Of a stretch of DNA of 64,000 nt, positions 93 to 53,657 are shown one piece after another. The position numbers and the translations under genes were made by a program. How positions within the stretch are numbered: the first letter of the stretch is position 1; each line of letters opens with the position of its first letter. Location: NCBI GenBank assembly GCA_048885525.1, contig JBHLLP010000015.1, positions 1 through 64,000 of the forward strand, written 5' to 3'. The notes below the pieces were generated by a model that saw only the letters and a list, made by a program, of their open reading frames with translations, searched no databases and was not told the origin of the DNA. This DNA is from Candidatus Hermodarchaeota archaeon. GTDB lineage: Archaea; Asgardarchaeota; Lokiarchaeia; Sigyniarchaeales; SOKP01.

Positions 93-1256
93 TTAATCTT
101 GGGTTTTCATATCCTTTTTATATTTTTTTTTAAAAGTCTTGTAGTCTCCTTCTGCTCCATTTCCTCCCATAAAAGTTGGTAAGTAATATGCCACATCTAA
201 TTTCCTTGAGAAGATCAAATTCATAAACAATCCTTTTGGCTTCAAGCTTTTATAGAGAGATGTTGCAATATTAGGAGTTTCTCCAGCATTATCAATTATA
301 AGATTCTTTTCTGCGGCTTGAACTCTTTTATATAATGGAAACCATTTCTCATTATTAGATGGTTCTACTCCTACTCCTGGAACCCATTGAATCCCTGTAA
401 TTGAAGGTTCTTGTAATAAATCATCTAAATGTTGTATTTGTCCTGGTCCATCTAAATGATAAACAGCGTAATCCATACTTTCAGCTTGCGTAATGATATC
501 AGGTAATACAAATCTTCTAAAATATTTTGGAGAAAGCATAGCGCTAAAATCAGATTGAATAGGATACCATTTTTTTGGGCACCAAATTGGCATCCAACTA
601 TTACATCCATCCACATAACGTTCGATAATTGTTTGAAGTTTATTGTATACTTTTAATAATTTTTCAAGAATAATTGATCGACACGCATCGATAATATCAG
701 GACGTCGCTTCATTGTAAGAATTAGGTTTGTTGGACCCAGAAACGAAGATAAAATATCCATTACACCCCCAAGATCAGTTAATGCTATAGAGTACTCGTT
801 TCTTGATTTTTTAGCAAAAAACTCTGTTACTTTTAATAAACGAGTATACCAAGGATTGTCTTTATTTACTTTTACATTCTCTAAAAGTGCTATAATTTCT
901 TCTGAAGATGTATCTTTATGGAACCAAACTGTATTTGATTGAAACTTTGGTATTATTCCAAATACTGAAGCCATAATTCCTGGTCCATAATTTGGAAAAA
1001 AACGAGGGATAGCTTCCCCTTCAAAGGACAAACTCCTTAAAATTTTTTCAAATCTTAGAAAAAATTCTTCAAAATTATCCCAATTTTGAGCTAAATACCA
1101 TGGAATTCCAAAATATTCAGAAATGTTATTTATTTTAAGATTTTTTAAATCTAAAATTAGATAATATGCAATACAAGGTCTATCAATTATTTCGTGGTCC
1201 CACCATGCCTTTAAACGCTCTTTAGCTTCATTTATATCTTCTTTATAAATGCTAAT
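93..1256 (-). CDS. Uroporphyrinogen decarboxylase/MtaA-like (URO-D superfamily) protein; probable ATT start
   Basis: Motifs QSDFSAMLSP..F..FVLP, YHLDGPGQ, IQWVPG. The frame stays open 75 codons upstream of the called TTG (1031), giving ISIYKEDINEAKERLKAWWDHEIIDRPCI, up to ATT 1256, 6 nt after AGGTGA. Confidence 0.75.
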   Translation of the reverse strand: MSIYKEDINEAKERLKAWWDHEIIDRPCIAYYLILDLKNLKINNISEYFGIPWYLAQNWDNFEEFFLRFEKILRSLSFEGEAIPRFFPNYGPGIMASVFGIIPKFQSNTVWFHKDTSSEEIIALLENVKVNKDNPWYTRLLKVTEFFAKKSRNEYSIALTDLGGVMDILSSFLGPTNLILTMKRRPDIIDACRSIILEKLLKVYNKLQTIIERYVDGCNSWMPIWCPKKWYPIQSDFSAMLSPKYFRRFVLPDIITQAESMDYAVYHLDGPGQIQHLDDLLQEPSITGIQWVPGVGVEPSNNEKWFPLYKRVQAAEKNLIIDNAGETPNIATSLYKSLKPKGLFMNLIFSRKLDVAYYLPTFMGGNGAEGDYKTFKKKYKKDMKTQD

Positions 1257-1299
1257 TAATCCTCACCTATAATTTAAATAAATTGAATCTCTTAAATTT

Positions 1300-1455: not shown

Positions 1456-1670
1456 GGGTAACGCACCCTAATTTAAAGATAATATTATAAAATTAATACT
1501 CCTAATTCGGTGCAATCAAGAATAGAATAATAAATCTGAGATATTTTGATTTTCAGTATCAGTTTTTAACAGTATTGTTAATAACAACACAAGTAAAGAG
1601 TTACAATAAAATTAGAGAATATTTAATTAATTGAATCTTATAATAAACATCTAAAGGTGATAAAGGAATA

Positions 1671-2027
1671 GTGGTTGAATTCTGTCCTGAATGTGGAAAT
1701 ATGTTAAGGAAAAAATCTTGTAAGTGTGGATACCAAGAAGTTCAGACAAAGAATGCATCTAACGCATACATTATTGAGATTTGGGACCCTCCTAATCCTA
1801 AGATTATATATTGTAAATTAACGGCTACATCTCAAGATAAACTTAGAATAATGCTAAGCAAAGGAAATTATCCCGAAAAATTAAAGGAAATTACTAAAAA
1901 AGTAAAAAATCATCAATATACATGTTGTAATTGTGTCTACTACAATGAAGAGATGGTTCACTGTCAAATCAAAAATAAGTTTGTAAAAGAGGAGTCAATC
2001 TGTAAAAGGTTTGAACCCTTTGAGTAA
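1671..2027 (+). CDS. Small Cys-rich protein: N-terminal RpoM/TFS-like zinc ribbon plus C-terminal 4-Cys motif
   Basis: FCPECGNML..CKCGY at the N-terminus; CCNCVYY..HC..ICKRF at the C-terminus; upstream AAGGTGA. Confidence 0.7.
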   Translation: MVEFCPECGNMLRKKSCKCGYQEVQTKNASNAYIIEIWDPPNPKIIYCKLTATSQDKLRIMLSKGNYPEKLKEITKKVKNHQYTCCNCVYYNEEMVHCQIKNKFVKEESICKRFEPFE

Positions 2028-28810: not shown

Positions 28811-28922
28811 TATAACCACTTTTTTTATTAATAAAATCTAAAAAAAAATTAAGATTTATCTATACATAGAAAATAATTTGAAGAAGATTTTTTATATATA
28901 TCCTTCCCTATGGTGAATTTTA

Positions 28923-30119
28923 ATTCAAAGGAAATTTAGAAAATTAATTCCATTAATCATTATTTTAGTAGGAATAATTCTGTTTTTTATATTCTATTTT
29001 TTCCCTAACAATTTAAAAATTCAAAATCTTAATATTGAATTAAAGTTTAGTGGTGAAAATTCTTATTCTTTTATCGAAGATCAGTTAGACATTGGTTTTA
29101 GAATACCAGGAACTATTGAACGTATTAATTGTGCTAATTATTTTATATCCAAATTTGAAGAAATTGACAGTAATTTCACTTATAATCTTCATAATTTTAC
29201 GACTCATTTAACTGAATGTCAAAATATACTTTTTAAATTAAATGAAGCCAGAACTAACATAATAATATTAGGAGCTCATTATGATTCTCGTGCTAAAGCA
29301 ACAAAAGATCCTATAATTGCAAATAGAAGCAATCCGGTTCCAGGTGCAAATGATGGAGCAAGTGGCTGCGCTGTTTTAATTGAGCTCGCAAATGTGCTTT
29401 ATTCAGAGCGAGATAATTTATCTTGTCAAGTATGGTTTCTATTTTTTGATGCCGAAGATCAAGGATTGGATAATGCATATGGGATGGATGGATGGGATTG
29501 GTGTGAAGGATCCCAGAAATTTGTTTCAGATATTAATAATTTTTATAACTCTGAGATAGAGAATTTTGAATGTATGATTCTATTAGATATGGTGGGAGGG
29601 GAAAATCTAAAATTTATCAATGAACAGTACTCAACTTCTTCTTTATTAGATGAATTATTTTCAATAGGTAGACATTTAGGTTATACTCATCAATTTCCTT
29701 CGAATCCTGAGAGTGCCTCAATAATAGATGATCATAGACCGTTCTTAAGCGCAGGCATCCCTTCAGCAGATTTAATAATAAATTTTTGGGATAATCCTGG
29801 GTGGCCTTATCATCACACTACACAAGATGATCTTTCTCATATTTCAAACTATAGCCTTGAAGCTACAGGAAAAACAGTTGAGCAATTTATTTACAATAAT
29901 TATCTTGATGATCCATTTAATCTTTATCAAGGTAATTATCCATGGAGTCAAGATATAAATGTACCAAATATAGAAATAATTATAATAATTATCGTAGCTA
30001 TTGTTGGAGTTTCTATTGTTATATTGATTTTTACTAGAAATACTTCAAATAATGAAGTTGAATCAGGAATACGCAAAAAATCCAATTCCTTCTATTTTAT
30101 TATTGTTCCACACTGGTAG
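28923..30119 (+). CDS. M28-family zinc peptidase / glutaminyl-cyclase-like membrane protein; probable ATT start
   Basis: Frame open 157 codons upstream of the called GTG (29394), containing a signal anchor, GAHYDSR and PGANDGASG. Downstream FFDAED, LLDMVG, DDH.PF, HHT..D; C-terminal TM. Confidence 0.85.
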   Translation: MQRKFRKLIPLIIILVGIILFFIFYFFPNNLKIQNLNIELKFSGENSYSFIEDQLDIGFRIPGTIERINCANYFISKFEEIDSNFTYNLHNFTTHLTECQNILFKLNEARTNIIILGAHYDSRAKATKDPIIANRSNPVPGANDGASGCAVLIELANVLYSERDNLSCQVWFLFFDAEDQGLDNAYGMDGWDWCEGSQKFVSDINNFYNSEIENFECMILLDMVGGENLKFINEQYSTSSLLDELFSIGRHLGYTHQFPSNPESASIIDDHRPFLSAGIPSADLIINFWDNPGWPYHHTTQDDLSHISNYSLEATGKTVEQFIYNNYLDDPFNLYQGNYPWSQDINVPNIEIIIIIIVAIVGVSIVILIFTRNTSNNEVESGIRKKSNSFYFIIVPHW

Positions 30120-31066
30120 CAAAATTTTTCAGTCAGTTCTAATTTCATTCCACAAAATCTGCAAATAATATGAGTTTCTTTTAGTTTTTCTTCTTTTTTC
30201 TCTTGAATTGTAGGGATTGTTCTTATATCTTCAGTTTTCACTTGAGGAGCTTTAATCACCGGTTCCTCATATGATTTTGGTTGTTCTATCTTTGAGCTTG
30301 GGGGAATTTCTTGTTCTTGTGGCATGATAACTATTTTTGGTTCTCTTTCTTTTTTGATTGTTATCACTGGCTTTACAATTTCCTCTTGTTCAATTTCTGG
30401 CAGAACTTTCTTAAGTTGAGCTCCACAATTAACACAAAATTGATTCTTCAAGTCTAAGATTTTATGACCACAGCTATGACAAAGGTTAATTATTTCACTA
30501 GACGGTCTACCTTTATAGGGATTGATTGTAGGGATCGATTTTAATTCTTCAGTTTTTAATTGAGAAGCTTTTAGTAAATGGTTTATTCGATCTTTTTTTG
30601 CTTTTAATCGTTCTTTAAAGAATTTCTCTTGCAAATTTGAGTATTCCTTATAATTCTCTACTGTTGTTTTTCTTAAACTATTCTTAGTTCCACAAACTTC
30701 ACAAACGTCCTTATTTATAATGGTAAATTCCCCACAATAAAGACAAAAAAAAGGATGATCTTTTAAAAAAGACTCTATATCTCCTTCTTTTAAATCCAAT
30801 ATACTCGGATGAGATTCTTCCGGTCCTAGCTTTTGTTCTCTTATTTGAGCTTGGCTAGGTGATCGTTTTTCTATAATGTAATGCTGAAAATCCTTTTTTT
30901 TAGCTAATCTTAAACTATATCTATTTCCACAACCTTCACAATATTCTCTATGTGTATCTGTAAATTTCTTGCAGCTATCACAAATATAAGGTTGGGCCTT
31001 TAAGAATGCTTTCCTATCTTGTATTAAAGGTTTGTGATCTTCTGTTGACCATTTTTCTGAAAAAAT
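30092..31066 (-). CDS. Multi-zinc-ribbon protein (four CxxC...CxxC modules); start uncertain
   Basis: Frame open 89 codons upstream of the called start, adding FLKAQPYICDSC..YCEGCG..SLR, a repeat of FLKDHPFFCLYC..VCEVCG..SLR. Confidence 0.75.
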   Translation of the reverse strand: MFSEKWSTEDHKPLIQDRKAFLKAQPYICDSCKKFTDTHREYCEGCGNRYSLRLAKKKDFQHYIIEKRSPSQAQIREQKLGPEESHPSILDLKEGDIESFLKDHPFFCLYCGEFTIINKDVCEVCGTKNSLRKTTVENYKEYSNLQEKFFKERLKAKKDRINHLLKASQLKTEELKSIPTINPYKGRPSSEIINLCHSCGHKILDLKNQFCVNCGAQLKKVLPEIEQEEIVKPVITIKKEREPKIVIMPQEQEIPPSSKIEQPKSYEEPVIKAPQVKTEDIRTIPTIQEKKEEKLKETHIICRFCGMKLELTEKFCYQCGTIIK

Positions 31067-34833: not shown

Positions 34834-35052
34834 ATGGGATGGACTCCTCCAAGCAAATTTACTGTAATTTTAACCCTTCTATTGATGGTTTTTGGAATTT
34901 TTATCTTACTTGATCTTGAGGCGCTATTTTGGACCAGTTTATTACCTGCATTTAATATCGGAACGTTTGATGGATGGTTCATTATTGCATTGATACTATT
35001 TTTCCTCACTTGGTTTCTTTTCTTTATGGGAGTAAAGCTGAAAGGATTATAG
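34834..35052 (+). CDS. Small two-TM protein (paralog 1)
   Basis: MGWTPPSKF...GVKLKGL; GGTGT SD; paralog at 35242. Confidence 0.85.
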   Translation: MGWTPPSKFTVILTLLLMVFGIFILLDLEALFWTSLLPAFNIGTFDGWFIIALILFFLTWFLFFMGVKLKGL

Positions 35053-36006: not shown

Positions 36007-36425
36007 ATAGTGAAATTAACTTTACTTCGCTGAATCAAAATAACACAATTTTTACTTTTTTTTTTAATATTTTATTCTTAAATATTGTATTATCTTAACA
36101 ATCTAATAACAATTTTAAGAAAAAAAACAAAAATATGACAATAAATTAATTAAATTTTGCTTGTGAAAGAATACGAGAAGCAATTTTATTAATCAGTTAT
36201 TATTTCAAAAGATATTATCTTGTTAATATATCTTTTTATAGTTTATGAATGTCCCATTCTTGTCAGTTTCCTTGAAATATAAAGGAAATTATGATTTTTT
36301 TAGTAAAATCACAAACATTTAATAATACAGTTAGGAAAATAATAATTAACAAAACATTATTTATTTCAATTTTAAATCCTATTTTAAATAAATTTTTAAA
36401 AAATTCTAAAAGAGGAAGATAAAAA

Positions 36426-36626
36426 ATGGCGAAAAAAGCTGCAAAATCTGAACCTTTGTTTGTAAAGTCAAAGGTTAGAGAATATATTAAAGGGAAAGGG
36501 TGTAATACTAGTAGTGGTGTCCTTGATGGGGACACTTTGAATGGACTCATTATGGAGATGTTAGATCACGCTGTAAGACGAGCACAAGCTAATAATCGAA
36601 AGACAGTAAAGGCAAGAGATTTATAA
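36426..36626 (+). CDS. Histone-fold protein, alpha3-truncated type
   Basis: LFVKSKVREYIK..NTS...RRAQANNRKTVKARDL*; RxTxxxxD histone motif at the extreme C-terminus. Confidence 0.88.
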   Translation: MAKKAAKSEPLFVKSKVREYIKGKGCNTSSGVLDGDTLNGLIMEMLDHAVRRAQANNRKTVKARDL

Positions 36627-40107: not shown

Positions 40108-41313
40108 TTATTCTCCTAATACTTTATGCCTCCATGATTCAGAATATTTTTTAGTTCTCTCATCAAATTTTAATTCCATAAACTTACTTTCTAATTTGTT
40201 ATATTCAGAAACTAATAATGTACTTGCTTCGTGAGCTCCTTTTAAACATAAAGGATAACCTCTGGGGGAATAAGGCATTATATTCTGTAATATATATTTT
40301 GCATCTTTTGTATCTAAGAAATCTGGTATGTCAAATCTTAAAGCTGCGCTATTTTTTTGTATTCTAGCGATATATGCCTTACTTTTAGTATACGCTGAAA
40401 GGTCTGGCATTTCTACCAAAAAACTTTTTTCTTTCATAATTTCTGACCAAATTGGCAAAATAAAATTACCTTGTGCATCCCTTAATCTACAAGTTTTGGA
40501 AATTGTATAATAATGTATATTATAAGATTCAACAAATTTAAAAAAGAATTTAGTAAAAGCTTGCGGTGGAAAAATATGATGCCGAAACATTTGAATTCCA
40601 TCACCTAGGAATACTACGTTTTCAACTTTTCCCCAATTACTTTCCTCTTTTATTCTTATAAGTGATTTCAAAATTTCATCAGCAGTTCTTATTCTATCAA
40701 CTACATGCGCTATAGAAGGATAATAAAATGCATGGTTATCTATAGCACTCTTTATTTTATTACTAAAAGTAGTTTCATACCATTCTTCTAATTCATCAAT
40801 AAAATTTTTCAAATCTCCAATATAGAAGATCTTTTTAATTGTTTTAACGAAATTTTCAATAACAGTTTGATAAATAATTAGTTTATGTTCGTTATCTTCA
40901 ATATAAGTAGAAATTGGTTTATACATTATTTTTTCAATATTATACTTTCCATCTGTGAGAGTAACTTGACCTTCTCCAAACTTAAATGATCCTAATATAG
41001 CATAAGTTCCAGACTTTGTGTTTGAGCTCTCATCAAACCCGATAATTTTAAATCCCTTATCTACATAATCAATTAAACTTTCTTCAATTCTGATATAAGG
41101 CATTTCGCTAAAGTGGGCTCCTGTATTTCTGAGTTTTTCTTCAGCACTACTAGTGGGATCGGGATCTTCTAACTCTTTTTTTTCTTCTTCTGTCCATGTA
41201 ATCTTATTAGATTTTATAAATTCCTTAAATTGTTTAATGTCGGGATCAAAAGATCCTTCCGGTCTATTATTAATCGACTCTTCCAATGATATTAATTCAA
41301 AATCGAATGAAAT
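40108..41313 (-). CDS. nurA: NurA-like 5'-3' nuclease; start ATT 41313 or TTG 41286
   Basis: IIGFDES, VFLGDG, ISKT, GYPLCLKGAH NurA motifs; lies between herA and mre11. Confidence 0.75.
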   Translation of the reverse strand: MSFDFELISLEESINNRPEGSFDPDIKQFKEFIKSNKITWTEEEKKELEDPDPTSSAEEKLRNTGAHFSEMPYIRIEESLIDYVDKGFKIIGFDESSNTKSGTYAILGSFKFGEGQVTLTDGKYNIEKIMYKPISTYIEDNEHKLIIYQTVIENFVKTIKKIFYIGDLKNFIDELEEWYETTFSNKIKSAIDNHAFYYPSIAHVVDRIRTADEILKSLIRIKEESNWGKVENVVFLGDGIQMFRHHIFPPQAFTKFFFKFVESYNIHYYTISKTCRLRDAQGNFILPIWSEIMKEKSFLVEMPDLSAYTKSKAYIARIQKNSAALRFDIPDFLDTKDAKYILQNIMPYSPRGYPLCLKGAHEASTLLVSEYNKLESKFMELKFDERTKKYSESWRHKVLGE

Positions 41314-53128: not shown

Positions 53129-53150
53129 TCTATTAAAGAGGTGATGTTTA

Positions 53151-53657
53151 ATCAAAATAGCGATTTTGGCTACAGATGGATATGAAGATCTCGAGCTGCA
53201 TTATCCACTCATTAGATTGATTGAAGCGGGGTATGAAACTGAAGTGTTAAGTTTACAAAAAAGAGAAATTAAAGGAAAATACGGATATCCCATCAAACCT
53301 GATAAATTAGTAAGAGAAGCCAATCCTGATGATTATGATGGTGTGATAATACCTGGAGGCACAAAAAATCCTGATTATTTAAGGAGAGAGAAAGAAGTAC
53401 TCGAATTCGTTTCCAAAATCAATGAAAAGGGAAAATTAATAGGTGCTATTTGTCATGCTGGTTGGGTTTTAATTTCTGCAAAAATTATAAGAGGTCGTAA
53501 AGCAACTAGTTATTTTGCAATAAAGGATGATATGATAAATGCTGGTACTATATTTGAGGACTCTCCAGTTGTAATAGATAATAATTTGATTACTTCGCGT
53601 ATGCCAAGTGACTTACCTGATTTCATGAGAGCAGTCTTGAATTTTCTAGAGCGTTAA
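53151..53657 (+). CDS. pfpI: PfpI/DJ-1 family protease/deglycase; probable ATC start
   Basis: (M)KIAILATDGYEDLELHYP, IPGG, AICHA, TSR.P.DL; ATC 6 nt after GAGGTGA. Confidence 0.92.
   Translation: MKIAILATDGYEDLELHYPLIRLIEAGYETEVLSLQKREIKGKYGYPIKPDKLVREANPDDYDGVIIPGGTKNPDYLRREKEVLEFVSKINEKGKLIGAICHAGWVLISAKIIRGRKATSYFAIKDDMINAGTIFEDSPVVIDNNLITSRMPSDLPDFMRAVLNFLER

Follow-up and report, generated by a model that had tools for sequence, protein, structure and literature searches.

Apparent translation starts at ATT, ATC and ATA behind Shine-Dalgarno motifs in an uncultured Loki-type archaeon

To judge from their sequence, about 1-2% of the ordinary genes of an uncultured Loki-type (Promethearchaeota) archaeon and of its genus, five of them in the stretch of DNA analysed here, almost certainly begin at ATT, ATC or ATA (collectively ATH), preceded at a distance of approximately 6 bases by a GGTGA Shine-Dalgarno (SD) motif. 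The reading that we prefer, at a probability of roughly 0.88, is that ribosomes would start on these genes at AUU, AUC or AUA, the codon being placed by the SD and read by initiator Met-tRNA. The stretch of DNA (the window) comprises positions 1 to 64,000 of contig C15, with 29% GC, of a metagenome-assembled genome (MAG) in 87 contigs that is designated G000; the relatives with which it is compared are MAGs labelled Promethearchaeota, Loki group.

An earlier note on the window had pointed to three clearly coding genes without an ATG, GTG or TTG (henceforth, canonical) codon before the conserved N-terminal sequence, and to the TGA of the SD being in frame with each of them, so that no upstream start would be available. 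Sites 1-3 read as described on both counts, and two of the cases that the note had ranked as weaker join them. In all five window genes, the ATH codon is preceded, at a distance of 0-2 codons, by an in-frame TGA or TAA, and no canonical codon follows for the next 5-157 codons. The spacer between SD and start codon is 6 bases at sites 1-3, 5 in the nurA-like gene and 3 in the gene starting at 31066. The features are as follows.

1263-1268 (- strand): SD of site 1, AGGTGA, with the TGA (1265-1263) in frame
1254-1256 (- strand): ATT start codon of the URO-D-fold gene (site 1); spacer GGATTA, its 6 bases being the modal spacer of ATG genes
93-1256 (- strand): URO-D/MtaA-fold coding sequence, 387 aa plus stop, starting at ATT
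28912-28916 (+ strand): SD of site 2, GGTGA, TGA in frame; position conserved in at least 18 genus orthologues
28923-30119 (+ strand): M28 peptidase gene (site 2), ATT start, 398 aa; spacer ATTTTA; N-terminal signal anchor
53138-53145 (+ strand): SD of site 3, GAGGTGAT, TGA in frame; spacer TGTTTA
53151-53657 (+ strand): DJ-1/PfpI gene (site 3), ATC start, 168 aa; spacer 6
40108-41313 (- strand): nurA-like gene, ATT start at 41313; GGTGA at 41323-41319, spacer 5, TAA directly before ATT
30092-31066 (- strand): zinc-ribbon protein gene, ATT start at 31066; GGTGA at 31074-31070, spacer only 3

Start sites in the window

The first canonical codon of the site 1 gene, TTG 1031, is 75 codons downstream of the ATT and would leave a protein of 312 aa, which is what the public record contains, as against 387 aa from ATT. 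The codon aligned with the ATT is ATG (loci L027, L029 and L030) or TTG (L028) in orthologues from sister species, the N-termini of which read MSTYKEDIN, (L)SIYKEDIY and MSIYKEDIV, compared with ISIYKEDIN here. Measured against the closest orthologue, dN/dS is 0.15 for codons 2-76 and 0.16 for the remainder of the gene. An AlphaFold model of the protein, built with 13 orthologues, reaches pLDDT 87 on average; residues 1-30 score 86-95, with a helix at 8-19 and a strand at 28-34 in that range, and the extension as a whole, residues 1-75, belongs to the modelled fold at 86-95. Foldseek matches the model over its whole length (~360-390 columns) to 4ay7, an MtaA-like methyltransferase, and to 6w2o, HemE, at a probability of 1.0 and TM of 0.55-0.63, and an Atlas feature search with the protein also indicates URO-D. 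The label of URO-D gene that had been given to this frame is therefore sound at the level of the fold (model and Foldseek) but not at the level of sequence: the protein has no Pfam match, URO-D (PF01208) included, even at E <= 10, and no sequence match among PDB chains, whether searched as a single protein or as a 13-sequence profile.

The ATT of site 1 is confined to one species, sister species having ATG or TTG. It recurs without gaps in GCA_048886605.1 (99.57% identical, 11 SNPs in 2531 bases) and without an indel in the Logan assembly of SRR30758827 (99.96% identical), both of them near-identical strains, and AGGTGAGGATTAATT is identical at site 1 in the two records. A very recent loss of function at this one site is a residual possibility.

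At site 2, the first canonical codon is GTG 29394, which is codon 158 and thus 157 codons downstream of the ATT. The Pfam Peptidase_M28 domain (PF04389; 115.5 bits, cut-off 21.3) occupies residues 101-322, so that a canonical start would split it. Residues 1-30 form the charged-then-hydrophobic segment that is typical of a signal anchor. In 18 or more of the 21 genus orthologues, GGTGA (or GGTGG) is followed by 5-6 freely varying bases and ATA or ATT; orthologues of more distant families start with ATG. The public protein is 297 aa long, as against 398 from ATT, and has been called from codon 102, an internal ATA that is rendered as M; for the orthologues, public calls range from 296 to 401 aa, with starts scattered inside or after the membrane anchor. 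At least one annotation pipeline, in other words, accepts ATA as a start and yet picks the wrong one. These two public records (312 and 297 aa) bear out the prediction that standard gene callers would shorten N-termini in this lineage. A TATA-like run lies upstream of site 2, at 28890-28901; a transcription start near the ATT could put the SD outside the mRNA, but the conservation of GGTGA argues against it.

At site 3, the first canonical codon, TTG 53166, is only 5 codons downstream of the ATC, and the Pfam DJ-1_PfpI profile (PF01965; 184.6 bits, cut-off 26.6) matches from its position 2 to 163 at residues 2-163 of the protein. Five other species have ATT at the aligned codon, immediately preceded by TAA in three of the five, and the remaining species have ATG with one residue more. 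The downstream TTG reads TTA in two of the ATT-bearing orthologues.

The nurA-like gene, whose protein has a Pfam NurA match, and the gene starting at 31066 were thought to be weaker cases; both turn out to be real. Among 34 species-level genomes, the start codon of the nurA orthologue is ATT in 25, ATA in 4, ATC in 3 and ATG in 2, each of them 5-7 bases behind an SD-like motif of the GGTG/GAGG type. The first canonical codon of the 31066 gene is a TTG 90 codons downstream of the ATT, and four orthologues show GGTGA, 6-7 bases, and then ATT-Ser. A CxxC...CxxC motif at approximately residues 29-46 falls within the N-terminal extension, the sole Pfam match of which is a zinc-ribbon stretch, 25-47, below cut-off. 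The alternation of ATG, TTG and ATH at the same aligned position, for which the earlier note had suggested looking, is thus found. The position of the starts, the optimal spacing of the SD, the conservation of the arrangement and the interchange of ATG and ATH between species can be regarded as established.

A third weaker case, at 1455, does not survive. It is a 50-codon open frame without canonical start (1304-1455, - strand), immediately 5' of the URO-D-fold gene; its similarity is confined to the N-terminus of URO-D-like paralogues on contigs C52 and C21 (37-40% identity), and it is probably what remains of a truncated paralogue. Two further frames in the window may have ATH starts. At 1668-2027 (+ strand), ATA 1668 follows AGGTGAT by 7 bases and is immediately 5' of GTG 1671; at 36263-36559 (- strand), ATC 36559 is 6 bases after GTGAT and 3 codons before ATG 36550. 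In each frame, either codon could be the one that is used.

The genome-wide count

Since the assembly of G000 yielded no 16S rRNA gene, the anti-SD was deduced from the k-mers that are overrepresented 5' of confident ATG starts, which give GGAGGTGAT as the SD consensus. Only ~13% of those ATG starts have an SD match of at least 5 bases; their spacers, counted after the A of GGTGA, peak at 6-7. The SD that the canonical ATG genes of the window had been said to share with the ATH genes is there: GGTG-type motifs lie shortly upstream of the genes at 2596, 26320, 34834, 35242 and 40095. (The genes at 34834 and 35242, on the + strand, are adjoining, encode small membrane proteins with the N-termini MGWTPPSKF and MAWTPPSKF, each behind GGTG, and look like a tandem duplication.)

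Simply counting GGTGA plus whatever triplet comes next is confounded by GGT-GAx, which is common inside genes, and counts were anchored at the 5' ends of open reading frames (ORFs) instead. The count was made in ORFs of at least 100 codons, on codons that precede the first canonical start by 5 codons or more; an SD match had to comprise at least 5 bases. Among 4413 ATH codons, an SD is placed at spacer 6 in 32 and at spacer 7 in 22; the corresponding numbers for eight AT-rich control codons are 7 and 23 of 10775 (Fisher p = 1.4e-12 for spacers 5-7). The spacer profile of ATH codons peaks at 6-7, as it does in ATG genes, whereas that of the control codons is flat; the same genome-wide ORF count gives no spacer peak for CTG or for second-position near-cognates. 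When the count is restricted to the 9 codons that follow the upstream stop, an SD accompanies 40 of 1695 ATH codons as against 47 of 10104 others (odds ratio 5.2, p = 1.3e-12), an excess of the kind that the earlier note had expected a count against controls to reveal. With looser criteria, the excess levels off at 44-48 of 3654 ORFs. Roughly 45-50 ATH-started genes, or ~1-2% of all genes, are thus detectable in G000, by a procedure that relies on the SD itself and has ATH starts without SD outside its reach. The proposal that this lineage routinely initiates at AUU and AUC is supported in this sense and extends to AUA, with 'routinely' coming to ~1-2% of genes rather than to a general habit.

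A Pfam scan of 20 further candidates from the genome placed the beginning of the domain before the first canonical start in 12, among them the proteasome alpha subunit, ribosomal proteins S10 and L10e, a Ras-like GTPase, ThiF, CorA, AFOR, a polyferredoxin and a rubrerythrin.

The three sites of the window had been described as sharing GGTGA-N3-TTA-ATH. Of this motif, GGTGA, 6 bases and ATH are retained; TTA is rejected as a component, since spacers vary freely among orthologues and the commonest triplet before the genome-wide candidates is AAA. The TTA common to the three sites is, on that comparison, a coincidence.

How far the habit extends beyond this genome can be gauged from the ratio of ATH to ATG sites with an SD:

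G000 (this genome, 3.58 Mb): 0.41
G006 (same genus, 0.4 Mb): 0.82
G032 (other family, similar GC, 0.8 Mb): 0.14
G038 (other family, similar GC, 0.4 Mb): 0.17

On these small samples, ATH starting looks commoner in the genus than in G032 and G038, two genomes of a neighbouring family, and is not confined to the genus: a few good ATH candidates are present in G032 and G038 too.

Some individual genes outside the window deserve mention. In a polyferredoxin gene (C7:30876-31313, + strand), the first Fe-S motif is upstream of any canonical start; an ATT lies 7 bases behind GAGGT, with the Fer4 domain running from residue 8, and a start at that ATT explains the upstream motif with no need for a BHB intron. 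Three paralogues with ISIDWAKAE-type N-termini, one at C24:27753-28598 (- strand) and two on C36 (+ strand, ATT at 29049 and 29891), have their ATT behind GGTGA or GGTGG; the C24 paralogue has only sub-threshold matches of coiled-coil type in Pfam. A second set, the pair on C59 and C82 (IPRRYYAKSKK), has ATT starts in both members. That paralogues share their ATT starts implies that the weak start persists through gene duplication.

How ATH codons might be read, and what else they might be

In the mechanism that we favour, an SD of the GGAGGUGAU type in the mRNA would pair with the 3' end of 16S rRNA and thereby set the codon ~6 bases downstream in the P site, where the ordinary initiator Met-tRNA (anticodon CAU) would pair with the first two bases and tolerate the mismatch at the third, so that the protein would begin with Met. 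The dependence on the SD, Met as the first residue and a weaker or regulated translation at ATH codons are all inferred, the model for the mechanism being bacterial AUU starts. The initiator-type tRNA-Met of G000 (C32:9579-9689) has the normal CAU anticodon and contains an intron; its ends, 5' AGCGGGG ... CCCCGCT 3', read as an A1:U72 pair, and GGG:CCC adjoins the anticodon loop. No unusual initiator tRNA was found among the 34 tRNAs that ARAGORN identifies even with intron search, an incomplete set.

Were translation to begin instead at the first downstream ATG, GTG or TTG, with the open stretch above it serving as an untranslated leader, then the M28 domain would be halved, and the first barrel strand of the URO-D fold and strand 1 of DJ-1 would be lost. 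Public callers do make that choice at site 1 (312 aa) and, at site 3, the TTG in question is a mere 5 codons away; against this, that TTG is TTA in two orthologues that have ATT, the extension of site 1 is under purifying selection equal to that on the rest of its gene, the downstream codons have no SD before them, and leaders with 75-157 stop-free codons are not to be expected at 29% GC. We consider downstream starting very improbable. The notion that the ATH sites are base-call or indel errors of metagenome assembly, or belong to recently inactivated pseudogenes, draws on the fragmentation of the MAG into 87 contigs, on the 1-base shift that would suffice to put the GTG of GGTGA in frame and on the species-specificity of the ATT at site 1, but it has to contend with an architecture that, for four of the five genes, is the same in 5-34 species assembled independently, with the ATT of site 1 recurring free of indels in GCA_048886605.1 and the SRR30758827 Logan assembly, and with intact reading frames at a dN/dS of ~0.15. 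It is scarcely credible.

Recoding might take either of two forms: readthrough of the TGA from an upstream start, or initiation at the GTG or ATG of the SD itself and a subsequent frameshift. ARAGORN does find a tRNA-Sec (TCA) in G000, and site 2 has an in-frame TTG 12 codons upstream of the TGA as well as an out-of-frame ATGGTG overlapping its SD. A search of the orthologues found neither a conserved shift site nor any coding sequence conserved 5' of the stop. The sequence upstream of the TGA is not conserved, and orthologues have other stops in it; in nurA and in three orthologues of site 3 it is TAA that immediately precedes the ATT; most orthologues have no ATG overlapping the SD of site 2; and the free variation of the 6-base spacer implies that there is no conserved slippery site. 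The chance that recoding is the explanation is close to nil. It could also be argued that a strong SD starts translation at any triplet 6 bases downstream, or that an elongator Ile-tRNA provides an N-terminal Ile, the more so as every detected case has a strong SD and the identity of the first residue is deduced from the DNA. At spacer 6, however, and counted per occurrence, AT-rich control codons are ~12 times rarer than ATH codons (0.6 versus 7.3 per 1000), CTG and second-position near-cognates lack the peak that indifference to the codon would give them, and orthologues have ATT, ATA, ATC, ATG or TTG at the start position and no other codon; initiation of this kind is improbable. Reading of AUH codons by initiator Met-tRNA behind an SD is what we are left to prefer.

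A weak start codon on the aIF1 gene

The gene for aIF1 (SUI1; C32:32281-32595, - strand; loci L254-L283 in the comparison) lacks a canonical start upstream of its zinc knuckle. In 22 genus orthologues its ATT is invariant and the 19-base leader, AAAGGTTGTGATAAGAGAG, is nearly so; seven orthologues of other families have ATA, GTG or TTG, and none of them has ATG, which is thus absent from the order as sampled. In a second aIF1 paralogue (C2:79571-79882, + strand), GGAGGTGA contains in-frame GTGs and ATA comes after it.

Genes for initiation-fidelity factors that have a weak start and are autoregulated by the level of the factor are represented by infC and eIF1. The conserved weak start of the aIF1 gene is no more than suggestive of a comparable feedback; to tie ATH starts to the fidelity of aIF1 and aIF2, as the earlier note did, is speculation. 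A fuller version, in which the genus has evolved a relaxed third-position discrimination in the P site, and in which the level of aIF1 feeds back on its own synthesis and on that of an ATH regulon of ~50 genes, is possible but we are inclined to doubt it. If it is true, the closest relatives of eukaryotes would have an archaeal equivalent of the autoregulation seen with bacterial infC and eukaryotic eIF1.

Relation to known start codons

Bacteria provide the nearest precedent: AUU, AUA and AUC starts are known from E. coli infC and pcnB, and ATT, ATC and ATA are listed in NCBI table 11. There, as here, a third-position near-cognate, presumably read by the initiator tRNA, lies behind an SD; its usage is rare and gene-specific, and the weak codon is found on the gene for a fidelity factor, infC in bacteria and aIF1 in the present case. 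The differences are that the archaeal machinery is eukaryote-like (aIF1, aIF1A, aIF2) and that ATH starts appear at ~1-2% of genes, housekeeping genes among them, and conserved across a genus.

Among archaea, a review names AUG, GUG and UUG only as start codons (PMC7531240). Archaea have SD-leadered mRNAs beside many that are SD-less, and the ~13% of ATG starts with an SD in G000 fits what that review remarks about Prometheoarchaeum (PMC7531240). Ribosome profiling of Haloferax volcanii brought to light near-cognate sites that the authors set aside (PMC7261190); those are alternative sites, whereas the ATH codons described here are the sole conserved starts of housekeeping genes. A search of the literature on ATH starts in Asgard archaea and Lokiarchaea found a single case and no systematic description: for the tubulin AtubA of a MAG of the Kariarchaeaceae (Heimdallarchaeia), an ATT start has been inferred (Sci Adv 2026, PMC13394414). 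AtubA resembles the present genes in its Asgard origin and in an upstream ATT, at plausible distance from a ribosome-binding site, that restores the first beta strand; it differs in being a single gene, referred to in the methods of a paper and belonging to another Asgard class, without genome-wide or comparative analysis (PMC13394414).

Consequences for annotation and for the study of start-codon fidelity

Gene finders that are limited to ATG, GTG and TTG, or that choose an arbitrary internal ATA, will have the N-termini of dozens of genes wrong in each genome of this genus, and the predicted proteins thereby lose signal anchors, P-loops and first beta strands, with distorting consequences for structure prediction, for localisation calls and for comparisons of eukaryote-like proteins. 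One published case has already needed its start corrected by hand (PMC13394414). The rule for re-annotation that emerges is simple: GGTGA, 5-7 bases and then ATH, immediately behind an in-frame stop.

Beyond annotation there is the matter of stringency in start-codon selection, in which prokaryotes and eukaryotes differ sharply. An archaeon that combines initiation factors of eukaryotic type with tolerance of AUH codons behind an SD, and that has such a codon on its aIF1 gene, would offer a natural system for examining how the fidelity of initiation is set and regulated.
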